Shown here: piece after piece, positions 31,207 through 42,042 of the stretch
Layout of the letters: every line of letters begins with the position of its first letter
How positions within the stretch are numbered: position 1 is the first letter of the stretch
From: an uncultured Acidobacteriota bacterium
GTDB lineage: Bacteria > Acidobacteriota > Vicinamibacteria > Vicinamibacterales > 2-12-FULL-66-21
Direction of reading: 5' to 3'
Length of the DNA: 64,000 nucleotides
NCBI GenBank assembly: GCA_963764925.1
Contig: CAVXUR010000008.1
Coordinates: forward strand, 3,923-67,922
The notes under the pieces: generated by a model
Databases searched by the model: none
Told to the model about the DNA's origin: nothing
The model's input: the letters and a program-made list of their open reading frames with translations, nothing else
Program-made: the position numbers and the translations under genes

Positions 31207-33333
31207 TCTCGACCCGGGGCAGCGGTCGGCGCCGACGAGGGCAGCAGGTACTTTTCGAGCCAGGCGCGCACTTCACGATAGAAGACACGGCTGTTCTCGC
31301 CCTTGAGGATCCAGTGGTTCTCGTCGGGCCAGATGAGCAGCCGCGTCGGCACGTTCATCCGCTGCAGCGCCGAGTACATCGTCAACGTGTTGCCCTCGGG
31401 GACGCGGAAGTCGTTCAAGCCGACGGAAAGGAGCGTTGGCGTCTTGAAGCTGCCGGCCTTCGCGAGCGGACTCTGCGCAATCCATTTCGACGGGTTCTCC
31501 CAATAGGGCCCGCCCATCATCAGCTCGCGGTGATAGATGCCGTCGCTGATGCCCCACTGCATCTCGAGCGTGGCGAGACCCGCGTGGCTGACGAGACAGC
31601 GGTAACGCGTCGTCGTGCCGGCCAGCCAGTTGGTCAGGTGGCCACCGTAGCTGGCGCCGCCCGCGGCCTGACGGCTGCCGTCGATGAACGCGATACTGCT
31701 TGATCGCTTCATCGGCTGCGTCGTTGATGTCGTCGGCAGGGCCGGCCAGCGGATCGCCCTGGATGTCGAGCGTGAACTTCTCGCCATAGCCGGTCGATCC
31801 GCGGTAGTCGGTCAAGAGCACGACGAAGCCGGGCTGAGAGAGGAGGTGATAGTTCCAGCGGTAGGTGATCGAGTCGCGCCACATGTTGGCGTGGCCACCG
31901 TGGATCAAAACGAAGAGCGGATACTTCTTCGACTCGTCGAAATTCGGCGGCAGGGCGACAAAGCTGTGGATGCGGCGACCGTCACGGCCCGTGAACCAGA
32001 ACTCGCGCAACGGCTGCCAATCGATCGACTCCGCTGACTTGGTCGTGAACGAAGTCAGGAAGGTGCGGTTGCCGGTCGTCGGATCGAGGCGGACGATCTC
32101 GGCCGGACGAATCGCGCTTTCCCAGTTCGCGAACGCGACCGCCGACGACCCGCGCACGGGGGTCTGCAGATTGGTGTACACGCCTTGCGGAGCGTCCACG
32201 GCCACCTTCGCCGCGCCGCCCGCCGCCGGGACCGCGTAGACGCGCTCGTGGCCCGAATCTTCGGCAGTGAAGTAGACCGTCTGGCTGTCGGCGGCAAACG
32301 ACCAGCTCCCGAGTGACCGGTCGAACCCTTTGGTGACAATCGACACCGCCGCCGGCGACGACCCGCTCAGAGGCCAGGCGGAACATCCCAACCGGTTGAG
32401 CTGGTAGATCACCGGTTTGGCTTCGGACACTGAATAGCAGAGCGCCTTGCCATCGGGACGAAACGCAGGCGCGCCGAAGTCCCAACCGTCCGGCGTCAGC
32501 CGCTTCGGCTCTCCCCCACTTGCTGGCACTTGCCAGAGATGGGTCACGACCGCGGCTCTCGCTGCCACGCCTTCATCCTCGGCCGCCATGAAGACGACCG
32601 ACTGGCCGTCGGGCGACCAGACTCCACCAAGCGCGGTGCCGCCAAAGCCCGGCCGAGCCGCGGCCTTCGACGCACCGAAGAGGCTGCGCGCTTTGCGGTC
32701 GCCGGCGACGTCGACGACCCACAGCTGGCTCTTCGACTCCTCGATCCAGTGATCGAAGTCCCGGATTGGAAACGAATCGTAGATACGAACCTTCGACTTG
32801 ATGTTCTTCCGTTCCTGAACCACCTTCCGGTTCGACTCCTCGTCGGTGGCGCCCGGCCACAGCGCCGCCTGAAAAAGAATCTTCTGGCCGTCGGGACTCC
32901 ATCGCGCCACGCTCGCCGCTGTCGGCGCCGCCGTCACGCGCTGAGCTTCACCGCCCCGGACGACGTCGAGCACGTAGATTTGATTGACCTCATCATCATC
33001 ACGCTTCGCGGCAAACGCGATGCGCGTGCTGTCGGGGCTCCATGCCGGTCCACTCTCGGTCCCCTTGGTCGACGTCAGGCGGCGCGGCCCCGCGCTGCCG
33101 TCCGCGGGAACGATCCAGAGATCCGACACGTCCTTCAGAGGATCGTACGACGGCTCCGAAACGCTGAAGACGACCCACTTGCCATCGGCGGACGGCACGG
33201 GCGCTCCGACGCGCTGGAACGACCAGAGGAGCTCGTGAGAAAGGGTAGTCGGCGCCTGACGGGCTTGCGCGGAGACGGTCGCCGCGGCGAGCAGGCACAA
33301 CACCCAGAACGAGGCGATTCGGTTGCGCTTCAT
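31203..33333 (-). CDS. S9 family peptidase, frameshift ~31690
   Basis: PD40 repeats (WSPDG), LIHGG, YRGSTGYG, GASYGG nucleophile, DFRVP, DENHWI. Confidence 0.93.
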
Positions 33334-33380
33334 GGGGACCGATTCTAGATGAAATCGCGTCGGCAATGCCGTCTCCCTAC

Positions 33381-34070
33381 TCAACGTTTCGTCGTCCAGA
33401 AATTATGGTTCACGCATGCGCCTTTTCCAATCGCGACATGCCTGGGCGGCACGGGCGTGTAGTCGCGCGGAAGTTCCACGGTCAATGTGTAGTCACCCGG
33501 GGGCACCACCCCGAAGCGATACGTGCCCGTCAGGTCAGTCCGCGTCGTGAGTTCACGGTTCGAGCCGCGAAGCACCATGCGAACGTTGGAAATGGCAGGT
33601 CCCGATTTCACGCCCGTGCCGGGATCGATATCGACAAAGGCAAAGCCCGACAGCGTCCCCTCACCAGGCTGCGCCAGGGCGGCGCGGATGTATTTGAGCG
33701 GCCCTTCGGACTGATCCAGCAGGTCGGTGCCGCCGCAAAGCGATACCTTCCACGCGCCGCTCGCATCCTTTGTCGCGTGCACGAGATATCGACTGCCCTG
33801 CTTGAAACCGAACTCGCACGAGCCGCCGACTCCGTACGAGGACGTTGTCAATTCACCCTGGACCCGCTCGCCGCGCAGCCATTCCTCGACGACAAGACGA
33901 GTGACCTGGTTTCCGCGAGTCTTCTCGACGACGCTCTGCGCGCGTCCGATGAAGACCGTGTCAGCCATCCAGAACGTCTGACACGGACTCAGTGGAGCGC
34001 ACGAGCACGCGCCGGCAGGGTCGGGAACGAGCAATATCGCCAGGAGGCCCAGGACCACGCGTTTGACCAT
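33381..34070 (-). CDS. Secreted protein: CSC/TIMP-like N-domain plus carboxypeptidase-regulatory-like domain
   Basis: Signal peptide then ACSC; TRTDLTGTYRFGVVPPGDYTL. Confidence 0.75.
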   Translation of the reverse strand: MVKRVVLGLLAILLVPDPAGACSCAPLSPCQTFWMADTVFIGRAQSVVEKTRGNQVTRLVVEEWLRGERVQGELTTSSYGVGGSCEFGFKQGSRYLVHATKDASGAWKVSLCGGTDLLDQSEGPLKYIRAALAQPGEGTLSGFAFVDIDPGTGVKSGPAISNVRMVLRGSNRELTTRTDLTGTYRFGVVPPGDYTLTVELPRDYTPVPPRHVAIGKGACVNHNFWTTKR

Positions 34071-34165: not shown

Positions 34166-34310
34166 ATCCACGTGAAACTGACCAATCGTTGAGAAAAACC
34201 GCTGGAAACATGATTGAAACAGCGCTCGTCATATGATCAAGCGGTCAGGCTCAGGTGCAGGCTTCCGCATCCACGCGTCAGGCTGGCACCCGAGCGAAGA
34301 CCACACGAGG

Positions 34311-35973
34311 ATGATCATGCGAGCCCTGATTGCCTCTCTCATCGCCGTCCTGGCCCTGTCGATCGTTCCCGAGGCGGCGGCCAAGACCTACACCGCCGAG
34401 CGCTTCGACTCCAGAATCCGAATCCTTCCGAACGGCGCAATCGAAGTCGTCGAGACCGTGGTGTTTCGTTTCGAGGGTGAATTCAAGTACGTCTACCGCG
34501 AACTCTCGCGGCGACGTACCGACGACATCGAGATCGTGAGCGCCGAAATGGACGGCCGGACGCTTTCCTTCGGCAACGAATCGGGGCAGGTCGAGGTGCG
34601 GCGACGTTCAAAGGTCCGCGTCGAGTGGAAGTTTGCGCCGCGCGCCGACTCGAGCCACACGTTCGTCCTCACCTACATCGTGCGCGGAGTCGTTCAGCGC
34701 GACGGCGGAAGGGATGTCCTCGAGTGGGTCGCGCTCCCGACCGAGCATGATTACCGCATCGGCGAAAGCCAGGTCAGCCTCGAGCTACCGGTCGCACCGT
34801 TGTCGCGGCCAATCGTCGACTCGAAGCGCGTGGCCGAACTGACGTTCGAGCCTGGCGGTCAGCAGCTGCAGGTGTTCGCGCGTGGAATCGGCAAGAACGG
34901 CTGGGTCAAGACGCGCCTCGAGTTCGGCGAAGGCGCGATCATCGCCGCCGCGCCCGCGTGGCAGCAGCGTCAGCTCGCCGCACGCGCGCTCGCGCCTCGC
35001 TGGCTGACGGGCGCAGGCATCATCCTCGTCGCCGGCCTGTTGTTCATGTTCGCGCTGCGCCAAAGTTACGACAGCCCCTGGGGCACCGCCCACGCCGGAC
35101 CGGTCGACGCGCCGCCAGACACGCTGCGGCCCGCGATGGCCGGCGCCGTCGCTGCGAACGGCGGGACCACGCTTCAGCACGCGATGGCCACGATCTTCGC
35201 GCTCGCCGATCGCGGCGTCGTCACCATCACCGAGGAGCCACGCAAGTGGGGCCAGCGGCACTTCACGCTGCACCGGCGCCGTGCCACTCACCCGCTGGCG
35301 CCTGAAGAAGACGCAGCCTTGAACCTCGCGTTCCGACATAAGGGCGCTGAGGAGGACGCCGTCGCGTTGACGAAAGCCAGGACGCGCCTGGCGGGGCGGC
35401 TCGGCGACTTCAAGCGCGCGGTCAAACAAGAGCTCCGCGGGCTCGGCCTCGTCGATGACGAGCGCATGCGTTTGCGCGCGCGCTACCTCGGATTCTCGAT
35501 CGCGTTGCTGATTCTGGCCGGTCTGCTCGTCGTGCCGGCGGCGTTTCTCGTCTCTCGATACGAGGGCTGGCCGTTTCTGATTGCGGGCGCGGTCGGACTG
35601 GTGTCGGTGATCGGTTTCATCTTCTACGGTTCGCTGACGCCACTGTCGAACGAAGGCGTGCGACGAGCCGAACGCTGGCGGGCGTACCAGAAGCACCTCA
35701 AGGATGTCGCGCGAGAGCGCGTGCACCTGACGACAGACTCGCCGTCCCGGCTGCTGCCATTCGCGGTCGCGCTCGGCCTCGCCGAGCGCGTGGTCGAAGT
35801 ACATGAAGAATCATCCAACCGGCATTCCACCCTGGTTCCGCGCGCTCGCGGTCTCCGGAGACGACAGCGGTTTCTGTGCGTTTGTCGCGGCGGGCGGAGC
35901 CGGTGCGGACGGCGGAGCCGGAGGCGCTGGAGCGGGTGGCGCCGCAGGCGGCGGCGGGTCGGGAGCGGGGTAA
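34311..35973 (+). CDS. DUF2207 family membrane protein, frameshift ~35780
   Basis: NGAIEVVETV..F.G, LLPFAVALG, Gly-rich tail ending GGGGSGAG-TAA at 35973. Confidence 0.88.
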
Positions 35974-35976
35974 CTC

Positions 35977-36306
35977 TCAGCTCTCAGCTCTCATCCTGAG
36001 GGCGTAGCGAACGTCGCGAAGCAGATCAGACAACATGTGCGATCTCCGGCTGAGTGTGGGAGGCGGCAAGGGAACCCTGCGGGGCCGGCTGGGGATGCCG
36101 CTGCCAAGGCGTGCCCCGGCGGGCAGCGCAGCGGTCGCGCGTGCCCAGGCGCGCTCGTGGTCGAGCCCAGACGCGCGCGCCTCTTGATAGAGGTCACCCA
36201 GGTGCTGCGCGAGCTCGTCGATCAGGTCTGGGTCGACATCTCGATCGCCTGCCCCGCCGGGAGGATCCGCCGCCAGACGCCGACGAACGTAGTCGTGCAG
36301 GTCCAT
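35977..36306 (-). pseudogene. Truncated ADOP permease (permease-prefix domain only)
   Basis: DELAQHLGDLY prefix motif, then MLSDLLRDVRYALRM followed at once by a CTCTCAG repeat and stop. Confidence 0.75.
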
Positions 36307-36326: not shown

Positions 36327-36665
36327 CTATCCGAGCGGGTCGAGACCGGCGACGCGATGCAGCGCCGTGAGGAGGGCGTGCCAATCGGTTCGCTGCGATG
36401 CGAGGACCTTCCGCCCGTCAGCCGTCAAGCGGTAGTAGCGGCGGCGGCGCTGCCCGGCTTTCTCGACCCAGGCGCCGTCGATCCAGCCGCGCTTCTCCAT
36501 CCGGTACAGCATCGGATACAACGACGCGACGTGGAACCGGAGCACGCCGTTCGATCGGTCGTCGATCACGCGCGCGATTTCATACCCGTGCCGGGCGCGC
36601 TCTTCGATTGCCGCCAGGACCATCAGCTCGGCGCTGCCGCGCTTCAGCTCGGTGTGTGCGGCCAT
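36327..36665 (-). CDS. PadR family transcriptional regulator
   Basis: KRGSAELMVL, HGYEI, SLYPMLYRMEKRGWI, RRRYYRLT. Confidence 0.95.
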   Translation of the reverse strand: MAAHTELKRGSAELMVLAAIEERARHGYEIARVIDDRSNGVLRFHVASLYPMLYRMEKRGWIDGAWVEKAGQRRRRYYRLTADGRKVLASQRTDWHALLTALHRVAGLDPLG

Positions 36666-36687
36666 ATATTGGCTCGCAATATATGGC
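36661..36687. promoter_or_regulatory. Palindromic operator over the padR start
   Basis: GCCATATATTG-N5-CAATATATGGC, perfect 11-bp arms. Confidence 0.7.
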
Positions 36688-36732
36688 GGGGTCGGTCCCG
36701 TCGTCAACTCCAATCGGCAGTCGGCAATCGGG

Positions 36733-36957
36733 CTACGCGCGGCGGGCGCTCCGGGCCAGGTGCTCCAGCATCTGCCGGCGGTGCGCCATCTCCCGCGAGG
36801 TCAGCTCAGGCGCCGGCGCGGCCTCGAACGGCAGCGATCGCTGCGCCCAGGCCTCGCGGCGCGCCCGCGTCCGCTCGACGCCCGCACGGAAACACTGGAA
36901 ACAGATGGCGTGTCGCGCGCAGATGTGGTCGGTCGTTCTCGTTCGCATGGTGAGCAT
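36733..36957 (-). CDS. Small basic Cys/His protein (74 aa)
   Basis: GAGGA RBS 8 nt upstream; HICARHAICFQC, QRSLPF, HRRQMLEHL. Confidence 0.7.
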   Translation of the reverse strand: MLTMRTRTTDHICARHAICFQCFRAGVERTRARREAWAQRSLPFEAAPAPELTSREMAHRRQMLEHLARSARRA

Positions 36958-36989
36958 GATGATTGTCCTCGACGTCGGGCACGGTGTGG

Positions 36990-37208
36990 CTATGGCAGAT
37001 CCAGGAGCCGCCTGGCTTTCATTTGTGCCTGACGCCGGCGGTGCTCGAGCACCTTGTATTTGTCCGGACCCCGCAACGCGCCGGGCCGACCGGCGAGCTT
37101 CAGCGACACCTTGAGCGGCCGCGCCGGCGGAAAGGCCGGAGGAAACGTGGAGGTCGTGATTTCGCTGAAATCGAGCTGCCGGGCCTCGGATCCACTAAAA
37201 CGGCGCAT
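36990..37208 (-). CDS. Small basic protein (72 aa)
   Basis: AAGGAG RBS 8 nt upstream of ATG 37208; QLDF, EHRRRQAQM. Confidence 0.7.
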   Translation of the reverse strand: MRRFSGSEARQLDFSEITTSTFPPAFPPARPLKVSLKLAGRPGALRGPDKYKVLEHRRRQAQMKARRLLDLP

Positions 37209-37291
37209 CGTCTTATCTCCTTGATCACTGCGCTTGGGCCACACCCCCAAGCGCTATGCAGGCGCTCGCTTCGACTCCTGCATTGAAACCA

Positions 37292-37324
37292 AGTCTAAAA
37301 GGAGGGTGTGACAGGGTAGGTCAC
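37292..37324 (-). promoter_or_regulatory. Candidate WYL-activated promoter: GTGAC-N7-GTCAC box, TGTCAC-N10-TAGACT
   Basis: Inverted repeat 37308-37324; -10 TAGACT at 37297-37292 on minus strand. Confidence 0.7.
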
Positions 37325-37358: not shown

Positions 37359-38039
37359 ATGCTCCCCGATCGCCGTCACGAGGTTTCGCGGCTCGAGGCG
37401 TTCAGCGACGCGGCGTTCGCGTTTGCGTTGACGCTGCTCGTGGTCTCGCTCGACGTCCCGCAAAGCTACGACCAGCTGATGCAGGTCATGAGGGGCTTTC
37501 CGTCCTTCGCCTGCTGCTTTGCGCTGCTCGTCTGGATCTGGTACGAGCACAACCTTTTCTTCCGCCGCTACGGCCTCCACGATCCCTGGACTGTGTTCGT
37601 CAACGGGATGCTGCTGTTCGTGACGCTCTTTTATGTCTATCCGTTGAAGTTCATGTTCGATTCGATGTTTGCGCAGTTCATGCCCGCGGCGTACCCGCAC
37701 CTGCAGCGGATGACCCTGGTGGAGCTCTCGCGGGCGTCGGCGATCTATGGATTGGGATTCCTGGTCCTTTTCAGCCTGTTTGCCCTGCTCTACCGGCACG
37801 CGTACAAGCGGCGCGTGGAACTCGGCCTCACGCCGCTCGAGGTGTTCGACGTCAAGATCTATGCGGGCCATCACGTAGTGAGCGCCACCGTCGGATTGGT
37901 GGCGCTGTTGGTCGCCGTTGCCGGCCCGCTGGCTCTGGCACCGATCTCGCCAACGTGTTTTGCACTCATGGGGCCCAGTCACTGGTGGTTCGGCTCTCGG
38001 GCGGACAAGCGCCGACGCGCGCTACTGGCCGCCGACTGA
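37359..38039 (+). CDS. TMEM175 family (DUF1211) channel-like protein
   Basis: RLEAFSDAAFAFALTLLVV signature. Confidence 0.9.
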   Translation: MLPDRRHEVSRLEAFSDAAFAFALTLLVVSLDVPQSYDQLMQVMRGFPSFACCFALLVWIWYEHNLFFRRYGLHDPWTVFVNGMLLFVTLFYVYPLKFMFDSMFAQFMPAAYPHLQRMTLVELSRASAIYGLGFLVLFSLFALLYRHAYKRRVELGLTPLEVFDVKIYAGHHVVSATVGLVALLVAVAGPLALAPISPTCFALMGPSHWWFGSRADKRRRALLAAD

Positions 38040-38086
38040 CTGACGACCGACTCGACTGGCGACTGACGACTGACGACTGTCGACTG
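38033..38086. repeat. Heptamer tandem array (CGACTGA)n
   Basis: GACTGAC/GACTGGC/GACTGTC units. Confidence 0.8.
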
Positions 38087-38090
38087 TGCT

Positions 38091-39101
38091 ATGCCAAGGA
38101 ACGCTGAAGTCATCCGGCAGTGGACGATCCTGCGAGACCTCGAATCGTCCCGGCGCTTGACGATCGACGACTTGGCAGGACGCACAGGCGTCACGACCAG
38201 GACCATCCGTCGCGACCTCGAGGCGCTCCAGGAGGCCGGGTTTCCTCTCTTCGACGAAGTACACGACGGCAAGCGCTACTGGACGCTCGAGCAACGCGCC
38301 TTTCGGCGGCTCGACGAGACGGGCTTCAACCTCGCCGAGTTGAGCGCGCTGTACTTCACGCGAACGCTTGCCGAATGCCTCGCGGCGACGCCGTTCCAGC
38401 AGGATGTTCGCAACGCGTTCGACAAGCTGGCGGCGGCGCTCACGCCAGGCATGCGGCAGTTCCTCGACCGACTGCCGCTCGCGATTCAGGCCAAGGCCGA
38501 TCCGGGCGTCCGCGAAGCGCGACGTCCCGAGGATCGGGCGAGTTCGAAGCCCGATCCGCGCGTGGCACAACTGCTCGACGCGACGCTCCACCATCGTCGC
38601 GTCGAGATGCGCTACCACTCGTTCTCGAGCAACCGCGAGAAGGCGTACGCGGTCGAGCCGCAGCGACTGGTCTTCGCGCAGGGCGCTCTTTACCTCCTCG
38701 CGTTCGTTCCCGAGTACGGCGAACTGCGCACGTTCTCGGTCGATCGCATTCTCGGCACTGTCGCTGACCGAGGATCGCTTCGAGCCGCAAGGATCTCGCC
38801 GAGGACGCGTTCGCGCATTCGCTCGGCGTGCACCAGGGCACACCTGAAGCGATCGAGATCGCATTCGAGCCACAGATGAGCCGCTACATCCGGGGCCGGA
38901 TCTGGCATCCCTCCCAACAGATCGAGGAGCGTCCGGATGGCGGGCTGCTGCTTCGCCTCGACCGTCTCGAACGACTGGGCGCTCCGGAGCTGGATCCTGG
39001 GGTTTGGCGCGCTCGCGCGCGTGGTCGCTCCGGCTCAGCTCGCCGCGCAGATTCTCGAAGAGGTCGAGCGCACTCGAGTCAGGTATCGCCCGCACGCCTG
39101 A
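38091..39101 (+). CDS. HTH-WYL-WCX transcriptional regulator (PafB/DriD-like), frameshifts near 38760-38960
   Basis: GVTTRTIRRDLEAL HTH; MRYHS..VEPQRL..YLLAF..RTFSVDRI WYL; WHPSQ and WILGFG..V..P WCX. Confidence 0.93.
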
Positions 39102-39623: not shown

Positions 39624-40593
39624 TTAGATCGCTCCGAGCAGCGTGAGTGCAAATCCGGCCTCTCGGTCGACCCACTGGTCACGCGCAGCGAACCCTGCTT
39701 CCGCCCCCATCTCCACGATACCGTCCGGCTCGTACTTGTATGAGCTCTCGGTCCAGATGCGCTCGCCGCATGCGAATGTGACGGTCGTGCCGGTGGCGGC
39801 GATGCGAACGCGCTGGTTGGCGCGGCTGACGAGGTGCATCTCGATCCGGCGCTCGTCGCCGTTCCACACCGCCTGATGATCGAACGCTCGCGAGGTCGAA
39901 CTCGCCGCCGAGCTCGTGGTTGATCCGCTCGAGGAGGTTCTTGTTGAAGGCGGCGGTCACGCCGAGCGGATCGTCGTAGGCGAGCAGCAGGTCGCGCTCC
40001 GGCTTGACGAGGTCGGCGCCGAGCAGCAGAAGGTCGCCCTGGGCGAGCGTTGCGCGAATGCGATCGAGGAACTGCGCGGCCGCCGGCGGATCGAAGTTGC
40101 CGATGTTCGAGCCGAGCAGCAGGACCAGGATCGTGCTGTCGGGGTGGCGTGCGGCAACGGCCGTCCGCAATCCCTCCTCGTAGGTCGACCAGTGCCCTAC
40201 CACCGAGACGTGTCGCAGTCGGTTCAGCCGCTGTTCACTTTGCTCGAGCGCTTGCGAAGAAATGTCGATCAGGTGGACGTGCGCGCTGGCGCCGCGGCGC
40301 TCGAGCGCTTCGGCGAGGAGCACGATCTTCTCGCCGCTGCCGCATCCGAGCTCGACGATCGTGCCATCGCCATCGCCGAGCGCCGCCACGACCGACCCGG
40401 CGTGCCGTGCGAGCAGATCGGTCTCGGCTCGCGTGATCCGGTACCACGGCAGGCGGCAAATCGCCTCGAACAGGCTCGACCCGAGCGCGTCGTACAGATA
40501 CTTCGACTGCAGCTGCTTGGGCGCGAGCGCGAGATCACGCGCGACATCGGCAGCGAATTCGGCGACGAATGAACGACGGGTAGTTGTGGGCAT
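39624..40593 (-). CDS. egtD: L-histidine N-alpha-methyltransferase, frameshift ~39880
   Basis: KYLYDALGSSLFEAIC..YRITRAE, ELGCGS, GSNIGN, AYDDPLGVTAAFNKN, IWTESSYKY. Confidence 0.95.
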
Positions 40594-40601
40594 GAGGTGA
40601 A

Positions 40602-40690
40602 GCTCTCGGCTATCAGCTATCAGCTCTCAGTTGACAGTTATTGCTGACAGCTGAGAGCTGACAGCTGTTAGCTGTTTGTTAGCTGATGGC
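40602..40690. repeat. Inverted heptamer array (CAGCTnT)n..(GCTGAnA)n
   Basis: Lies between egtB and egtD and overlaps the egtB stop. Confidence 0.8.
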
Positions 40691-42042
40691 TGTTCTGAAC
40701 TTGGCGTAGACGAATGGATAGTTCGGCCTGAACCAGTTGCGAAAGCTGCGGCGGACAAGCTCACGCGCCGTCGCTGGCGACGCGCCCTTGATGACGTAGT
40801 GCTGACCGTCGAAAAAGTCGGCGGAGTACTCGGGGTAGGAGGCCATCGGCTCGAATCCGGAAAAGGGCCCGAAGACCGACGACGTCCACTCCCACCCGTT
40901 GCCGACCAGGTCCTGCACACCCCAGGCGCTGGCGCCCAGCGGGCGCGATCCCACCGGGACAGGTTCCCACGAGGCGAAGTCGAAGTTGCCGCGCGTCGCG
41001 TCGGCGGCCGCGTCACCCCACGGGAAATCGCGCTCGACTCTCACCGGACGGCGTCCCGAACGCGGCGCGGTGATACTCAGGCTCGGTCGGCAGTCTTCGT
41101 TCGCGCCAGCGGGCGAAGGCCGCCGCCTCCTCGCCGCTCACATACACGGGCCACTCCGACGGCAGCGCGATGTTTTCGAACATCCCGCGCCAGTCCCACC
41201 GGCTGCCGTCGCGCACCCAGAAGGCGGGATGCGTGACCCCTTCATGCTCGCGCCACTGCCACCCTGGGTCGGACCAGAGCTCGCGTTTTCGATACCCGCC
41301 GTCGTCCATGAACTCCAGGAACTCCGCGTTGGTGACGCTGTGCGCGTCAATCTCGAACGCGCCCACCTCGACGCGATGCTCGTCGAACTCGTTGTCCCAG
41401 CCGAACGGGATCCCGGCACGCGCACCAAGCGTCGCGACACCTGACGCGATCCTGACGGTGGAGCGCGTCGTCGGCTCGACCGCACGTTCGTAATGGAGGG
41501 AGGCCGGCGCGCGCTTCTGCTCGTGCGGCAGACGATGCCACATGTAGAGCAGCGTTTCCTGATGCATCGCCTCGTGCTCGAGCGCGGTGAAGATAGCCTC
41601 GCCGCGGCGCATCGCGCGATGTTCGCGCGCCGTTCAGATCGAACACAGCCTGGCCGAGGGCCTCGACGATGGCGTCGTCTGCGCGCCGGCCAAACGCCAG
41701 CACCTCATCACGGGACGGCCAGGCGGTCTCCGCTCCCGTGCGCGGCACCGCCAGCTCGACGCTGTCGGGATCGATGCCACGCTCGAACAACCGCTCCATC
41801 CGGGCGTCGACGCCTGGCAGACCGAGCCCGCGCTTCAGCAAGGCAATCACGCTGAAGGCCGGCAGGTGGCCCTCGTAAAAGACGATGGGATTGCGCAGCG
41901 CGATCGGCCGAGAAAAATAGGCCGCCGGATCGATGAGATCGAAGAGGAGGCGCGAGCGTTCCCGATTGCGTTGATACCAGTCGATGAGCAACTGGCGATC
42001 GACTCGGGGTGGGTTCTGGACGGCCGGGGCACTGGAGGACAC
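40679..42042 (-). CDS. egtB: EgtB-family sulfoxide synthase (DinB + FGE-sulfatase domains), frameshifted
   Basis: FYEGH, HEAMHQE, FGWDNE, RLPTE, GNGWEWT, SFRNWF; adjacent to egtD. Confidence 0.88.

Follow-up and report, generated by a model that had tools for sequence, protein, structure and literature searches.

The window, which is the whole stretch of DNA that was analysed (64,000 nucleotides), comes from the genome of an uncultured bacterium of the Vicinamibacterales, phylum Acidobacteriota (GenBank accession number CAVXUR010000008.1), referred to below as G000. It was found to carry two adjacent small genes, here designated A and B, together with a promoter element and two divergently oriented genes. 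The features are as follows.

36990..37208, minus strand: gene A, an ORF of 72 aa with an AAGGAG Shine-Dalgarno sequence before the ATG
37167..37178, minus strand: QLDF of A (residues 11-14), within the conserved AR.LDFG
37020-37046, minus strand: EHRRRQAQM of A (residues 55-63)
36733..36957, minus strand: gene B, an ORF of 74 aa downstream of A
36892..36927, minus strand: candidate zinc site HICARHAICFQC of B, H-x-C-x5-C-x2-C (residues 11-22)
36826..36843, minus strand: QRSLPF of B, a candidate clamp-binding peptide (residues 39-44)
36760-36786, minus strand: AHRRQMLEH of B (residues 58-66)
37292-37297, minus strand: TAGACT, the -10 box of the A-B promoter (whole element 37292..37324)
37308-37324, minus strand: GTGAC-N7-GTCAC, the promoter/operator palindrome, 10 nt before the -10 box
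37359..38039, plus strand: TMEM175-like membrane protein (Pfam PF06736), divergent from A-B and upstream of the WYL gene
38091..39101, plus strand: HTH-WYL-WCX regulator (Pfam WYL and HTH_11), the likely activator of A-B

Each of the short protein motifs listed had been singled out in an earlier note made from the DNA letters, and all of them were recovered on translation, QLDF and EHRRRQAQM in the 72-aa product and QRSLPF, AHRRQMLEH and the zinc-site string in the 74-aa product. A and B are almost certainly genuine genes. A search of the genomes of 61 relatives at E <= 0.01 gave matches to B in 30 and to A in 36, of which the weakest are probably spurious. When the loci were excised, A was recovered in 21 and B in 22, and in every recovered locus A lies directly upstream of B, with a gap of between -29 and +36 nt that includes several 4-nt overlaps of start and stop codons. 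A and B are co-transcribed as an operon. B starts three codons later in most relatives, which gives a product of 71 aa. One orthologue is broken, namely the A copy of relative G012, which is interrupted by a stop; the same genome (locus L012) has a second weak B-like match at 165-329, with 39% identity over 59 residues and about 1.2 kb from the main B. Contigs from RNA libraries of close relatives span both genes; such contigs carry no start-site or induction signal, and the parts of the window left uncovered by them are uninformative.

Scans against Pfam and NCBIfam assigned A and B to no family, nor did they assign any of eight fused or A-like relatives; matches to ZZ_ADA2 (14.6 bits) and GATA (16 bits) were far under the cut-offs and were rejected. 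A large protein collection yielded 361 clusters for B and 328 for A, all hypothetical or unnamed, and the clusters with a named source organism always came from Vicinamibacterales. The family has 28 representatives at E <= 1e-3 among 1.84 billion proteins, and it occurs in 14 of 301 sampled genomes of the phylum, 12 of these lying within the order. Judged from these searches, the A/B family is small, lineage-bound and unnamed. Publications retrieved for Vicinamibacter and WYL dealt with soil ecology, and the family did not appear among their titles or among the titles listed for clamp-binding motif, DNA damage and small zinc protein.

In Actinobacteria, Caulobacter and Acinetobacter, WYL regulators are known to detect DNA damage independently of the SOS response; beyond these groups their effectors are, to our knowledge, largely unknown. 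All of 20 loci, each spanning 16 kb (±8 kb around the pair), contain an orthologue of the WYL regulator encoded next to A-B, and in four of them it is directly divergent from A. The WYL orthologue accompanies A in each of the 30 genomes that have an A match at E <= 1e-4, and none of the 14 genomes without the orthologue has A, the relatives not being independent of one another. For the intact 335-aa orthologue of relative G004 the nearest solved structures are PafC (7p5x), which is the best match with E 2.6e-11, and the DriD chains 8tp8 and 9pfq, which align over the full length including the C-terminal part with E about 1e-6. Compared with the G004 gene, the copy in the window contains single-base insertions near 38757, 38796 and 38958, and its frame in this assembly runs 0 -> 1 -> 2 -> 0. 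Other G000 genes that read as frameshifted are dnaN, dinB, an S9 peptidase gene (31273-33384), the C-terminus of the DUF2207 gene and the egtB/egtD-like ORFs at 39679-41044; as several genes are affected, an assembly error is likelier than a true WYL pseudogene.

The TMEM175-like gene is an optional passenger. Of 20 loci, 14 have it interposed between A-B and the WYL gene; the other six lack it, and in these the WYL gene stands nearer to the pair or diverges directly from it. Between the TMEM175-like and WYL genes (38040-38087) there are about six tandem copies of a 7-nt unit, CGACTGN; this run was the deepest-covered part in all four RNA-library runs and occurred with many different flanks, as would be expected of a short repeat dispersed in the genome. 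Beyond the other end of A-B the gene for a DUF2207 membrane protein (34233-35999) is a conserved neighbour, present in 18 of 20 loci. A PadR gene (padR_acidobact type) has at its start (36664-36688 and 36678-36707) an overlapping perfect palindrome, CCATATATTG-N5-CAATATATGG, together with a sigma-70-like promoter, TTGACG-18-TATATT; the palindrome is probably the autoregulatory operator of PadR. Only 5 of 20 relatives have the PadR gene and a permease-prefix gene after B, and the two are thus a separate unit.

The promoter of the operon is conserved along with it. A regular-expression search located GTGACCTACCCTGTCAC-N10-TA[GC]ACT within 220 nt of the A start in 20 of 21 loci, and in the remaining one (G005) the motif is farther upstream, behind a tandem insert. 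The sequence in the window, TGTCAC-N10-TAGACT, matches the PafBC consensus tGTCgg(N10)tA(N3)T with equal spacing. A genome scan with a position weight matrix and the regular expression detected no second such site in G000, the assembly of which is 77.7% complete. With two mismatches allowed, the pattern was present in 32 of 41 relatives and its reversed control in none of the 41. It precedes recA in three relatives (G013, G023 and G024), while recA of G000 has an ordinary promoter, TTGACT-18-TAGAAT, without the WYL-type motif. The other genes led by the motif in relatives encode DUF2130 (two cases), SocA_Panacea, DNA methylase, DUF932, Cas_GSU0053, MerR and VWA proteins, as well as more A-like or fused proteins. 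Those for Cas_GSU0053, SocA_Panacea antitoxin-domain, DNA methylase and DUF2130 proteins, found at loci L091 (G045), L076 (G011), L105 (G023), L079 and L102, suggest that the regulon extends to mobile-element or defence genes in some genomes. Seven further matches in relatives fall inside one recurrent ORF, which we take to be alanine racemase, and were set aside as a coding coincidence.

As a PafBC-type promoter, an adjoining WYL regulator and the motif before recA in three relatives occur together, induction by DNA damage is likely, and there are good grounds, in gene order and promoter sequence, to regard the A-B operon as WYL-controlled and damage-induced. The proposal that the two small proteins are induced by damage is to that extent supported. 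LexA is encoded in 38 of 41 genomes of the group, and the WYL pathway would therefore be a second route beside the SOS response. Two hairpins are predicted in the 5' leader of A (37215-37285; RNA fold z = -2.1), and the stem of one of them is a GC-rich run of 9 bp. A unit of about 70 nt resembling the insert in this leader is tandemly repeated in G005 (L007), in the manner of a small repetitive extragenic element; the insert is confined to the closest relatives and for this reason is not counted as part of the system.

In A, the motif AR(Q)LDFG at the N-terminus is joined by a variable linker to a helix at the C-terminus, PDKYKVLEHRRRQAQ.KARRLL. B is laid out as a putative zinc knuckle (H11/C13/C19/C22), a basic helix, a QRSLPFE loop and a C-terminal helix, LT.RE.AHRRQMLEHL. 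In the alignment of A the invariant positions are A9, Y51, R57, R58, A61, Q62, A65, R66 and L69. Those of 22 B orthologues are C19, F20, C22, F23, G26, R29, A32-R34, A36, Q39 and R40, followed by L42, P43, F44, L52, A58-R60, M63, L64 and L67. Thus C19 and C22 of the proposed metal site are strictly kept; H11 is nearly invariant, and H16 is variable, being H, or Q in many homologues. Three divergent orthologues have C-x-H in place of H-x-C, and the fused relatives described below have a full CxxC...CxxC zinc ribbon with four invariant Cys. These substitutions point to a likely zinc site in B, with H11, C13, C19 and C22 as the likely ligands, and the suggestion of such a site, first made from the single sequence, is strengthened by them.

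The two proteins had also been said to share an HRR(R)Q helix. The resemblance is real, and the HRR helix is conserved within the A family and within the B family, but comparison of the two profiles with hhalign gave a probability of 0.4% over 8 columns, with no detectable homology, and a common descent of the two helices is consequently not demonstrable. A natural protein (L089) in which helix signatures of the B type and the A type stand in tandem hints that the two helices are different segments.

In other families of the order a single gene stands behind the same promoter motif and adjoins the WYL gene. Its product is a fused protein consisting of an N-terminal QLxLxY peptide, the zinc ribbon with a basic helix, and a C-terminal KY..L..RRRxAQ.AARR helix. 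Sixteen fused proteins agree without exception at Q35 and L36, at the four Cys and in the core of the helix, and the RRRxAQxxARR helix is the most invariant element across the whole family. The QLxLxY peptide occupies the same N-terminal place as the motif of A. In the model of one fused protein (P0121) the mean pLDDT is only 64 and the N-terminal region is disordered, the motif lying inside residues 18-67, which have pLDDT under 50. Some fused relatives have WLPF, WWPF or SPF close to the C-terminus, and most are without LPF after the basic helix, that is, at the position of the B loop. A search of the ESM Atlas with a fused protein returned only its own unnamed cluster. Since A retains the N-terminal peptide and the helix, and B a reduced ribbon, the basic helix and the helix, the two would be complementary descendants of a protein of the fused type; these alignments suggest that each represents one half of an older single protein, which is still present elsewhere in the order.

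Peptides that bind the sliding clamp follow the consensus QL[SD]LF or QLxLx[LF], and the earlier note had read both small proteins as carrying motifs of this sort. The resemblance is closer in B than in A. LDFG is conserved in A homologues, but QLDF fits neither the five- nor the six-residue form of the consensus, and in the best 120 of the 328 A clusters the Q position is occupied by Q in 75, K in 26, T in 8, S in 4, P in 2 and L in 1, four clusters being without a QLDF-type motif. In B, where the stretch around the candidate peptide reads EAWAQRSLPFEA, QRSLPF keeps Q1, L4 and F6 of the six-residue form and replaces L2 by R; QR.LPF was present in all of the best 120 of 361 clusters. The concern that such short motifs may arise by chance is justified for the loose pattern Q..L.[FL], which is expected 0.03 times per 74 aa in G000 and as a single motif in a single sequence means little, but it does not extend to a peptide conserved throughout the clusters inspected. 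The corresponding rates are 0.002 for LPF[DE] and 0.001 for HRR(R)Q, all three being rough values from a G000 pseudo-proteome of 1644 ORF segments (645,838 aa). The RARREAW flank of QRSLPF is as invariant as the motif itself in the 22 orthologues, so that conservation alone cannot single out the motif, and a structural role is possible.

The order's own clamp-dependent proteins offer a closer comparison. Y-family polymerase genes were identified at 32 loci, of which five were excluded as broken or ImuB-like. Of the 27 intact Pol IV tails, 22 end in x-LPF-[DEA], for example ALPFA, SLPFV and WLPFD, or RLPF as the last residues of the protein. In the remaining five the tail has LLF, PLF, LPW, a divergent sequence and, at the same place in G038, the canonical QLSLF. 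From its position, the LPF-type tail is probably the clamp-binding peptide of Pol IV, and SLPFE of B has the same peptide form. The replicative polymerase DnaE1 has GQ[NS]QLFG near residue 926 (in G004 the gene is truncated where its contig ends) and an ImuB-like protein has QLELPL, which indicates that the lineage employs classical clamp motifs as well.

The AlphaFold2 model of B (pLDDT 79.6) comprises helices at residues 20-39 and 54-73, both confidently predicted, and QRSLPF sits in the loop between them, so that burial of the motif, which would have spoken against clamp binding, is not what the model predicts. Residues 40-53 are without secondary structure, the block 41-50 having pLDDT 69. 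With this model Foldseek gave no match and a wide VIA fold search gave generic helices only (best Z 3.6). The suggested prediction of a complex with DnaN was run with B and with DnaN of G004, as dnaN of G000 reads as frameshifted. It gave ipSAE values of 0.47, 0.47 and 0.46, the highest of three controls being 0.00, a result graded as weak support. The runs agreed in at least 75% of contacts with a partner pLDDT of at least 48, and the output consisted of such scores without an interface. Of 157 solved complexes 116 reach the pass mark, as do two of 215 mismatched pairs; passing scores of 0.60 or less, however, comprised only 18 of the 157 solved complexes and both passing mismatches, and the value of 0.47 falls in a band that is rated oftener wrong than right. 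Memorised clamp-peptide complexes, of which many have been solved, may also have contributed to the score.

With these data, binding of the clamp by the A-B pair is the reading we tentatively favour, at somewhat under even chances and on the strength of motif comparison and modelling, the case for A being weaker than that for B. By analogy with PafBC and DriD, the regulator would sense single-stranded DNA and turn on the promoter composed of a -26-type operator and a -10 box. A and B would be the main target of the neighbouring regulator, and in G000 the sole detectable one. B would then offer its QRSLPFE loop to the hydrophobic pocket of the DnaN beta clamp, the same pocket that is probably gripped by the x-LPF-[DE] tail of the order's Pol IV. 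A would supply its N-terminal AR(Q)LDFG peptide and probably pair with B through the arginine-rich C-terminal helices, and such a pair could fill both pockets of the clamp dimer and so limit or re-order the access of polymerases after damage. In its most specific version this becomes a heterodimeric, damage-induced "clamp plug", in which B mimics the Pol IV tail, A contributes a degenerate QLxLxY and both beta pockets are filled; it would be a WYL-controlled, SOS-independent checkpoint on polymerase traffic, born by the splitting of an ancestral zinc-ribbon protein. So complete a scheme is speculative and, taken as a whole, unlikely.

The strongest competitor, itself a rather unlikely one, is that A and B are damage-induced binders of nucleic acid, coating or marking ssDNA or dsDNA or else attaching to RNA, and acting as a repair accessory or nucleoid protein, and that the motifs serve folding or another partner. 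Both proteins have a pI of 11.6, with net charges of +10 (A) and +8 (B), and their models contain long exposed helices; the zinc ribbon with its four invariant Cys, conserved across the wider family, and the dominance of the RRRxAQxxARR helix among the invariant elements would suit such a role as well as they would clamp binding. No DNA- or RNA-binding family, however, was matched in the family and fold searches, and nucleic-acid binding leaves unexplained both the invariant LPF[DE] common to B and the Pol IV tails and the invariant N-terminal QL in the disordered region of the fused form. It could, moreover, coexist with clamp binding.

That the target of A and B is instead the transcription apparatus or their own WYL regulator, with the pair giving feedback as an anti-activator, a co-activator or a binder of RNA polymerase and not acting on replication, is improbable. 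Small zinc-ribbon proteins that bind RNA polymerase exist, a tight linkage of pair and regulator is seen throughout the order, and the promoter of the pair is the sole motif site in G000. Against this, the family and fold searches disclosed no DksA-like or anti-sigma similarity, and the pattern H-x3-C-x2-C of zinc-binding anti-sigma factors is not that of B, which has H16-x2-C19-x2-C22 with a varying H16. The regulon of relatives also holds recA and other genes, which shows that the regulator is no closed loop and argues against feedback.

More improbable again is a damage-induced inhibitor of cell division, the counterpart of DidA under DriD in Caulobacter. The scheme would be the same, a WYL activator driving a gene for a protein of roughly 70 aa; DidA and SidA are membrane proteins, however, and the sequences of A and B are devoid of any hydrophobic or membrane-spanning stretch (GRAVY -0.71 and -0.66). 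Finally, high-GC DNA yields many spurious ORFs and the loose clamp pattern has its expected background, but the idea that the motifs are chance features of unrelated small ORFs, or that the ORFs are not genes, can practically be dismissed in view of hundreds of homologues, the kept gene order, the Shine-Dalgarno sites, the conserved promoter and orthologues that are free of stops save for the single A copy mentioned above.

In a widespread order of soil Acidobacteriota, the most conserved target of the WYL regulator is probably an unnamed family with peptides of the clamp-docking type. The regulator and promoter are new members of the known PafBC/DriD kind, and A and B would be a new, unnamed and lineage-specific effector family of the WYL damage response. 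If the clamp is indeed bound, access to it would be regulated by a damage-induced pair that imitates the tail of a translesion polymerase, a simple means of timing mutagenic synthesis or of pausing replication, and the promoter logic of PafBC would be extended to another phylum. Should clamp binding fail, a new WYL regulon is still identified by the A/B family at its core.

Among known systems, the SocB toxin of Caulobacter is a small protein that blocks replication by binding the clamp, and on the favoured reading A and B would likewise include a small protein competing for the clamp pocket. They differ from SocB in having neither sequence similarity to it nor an antitoxin logic; their promoter is of a damage type, and their locus belongs to the conserved core of the chromosome. 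With clamp-binding peptides in general B shares Q1, L4, F6 and a loop position, and with the Pol IV (DinB) tails the LPF[DE] end; the candidate motif of B is internal and not terminal, with basic residues before it.

DriD of Caulobacter crescentus is described, in the portions of the reports available, as a homodimeric HTH-WYL-WCX activator that senses ssDNA, has recA among its targets (PMC9186387) and drives didA, a gene for a protein of about 70 aa, after damage (PMC9186387, PMC4211646). The locus described here resembles it in the WYL regulator, in an operator palindrome that coincides with or adjoins the -35 position and in the gene for a protein of about 70 aa. On the same partial account (PMC9186387), the 20-bp DriD site ends at -36 of a promoter with both -35 and -10 boxes, and the operator sequence differs. 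The effectors differ too, A and B being soluble, basic, predicted to bind zinc and paired, with no similarity to DidA at the level of Pfam.

In the mycobacterial PafBC system, which works by sigma adaptation at hybrid promoters of the -26/-10 type, a -26 element stands in for the -35 box, to judge from the section of the source at hand (PMC8635444). PafBC consists of a PafB/PafC pair, whereas one regulator gene is present here, and the inverted upstream half-site GTGAC suggests a homodimer on a palindrome, unlike PafBC; the regulon is also small, with one site in G000, and belongs to Acidobacteriota and not to Actinobacteria. PafC (7p5x) is nevertheless the best match of the WYL regulator, recA lies behind the motif in relatives, and the TGTCAC-N10-TAGACT promoter of A-B has the spacing of the PafBC consensus (PMC8635444, as given in that section).
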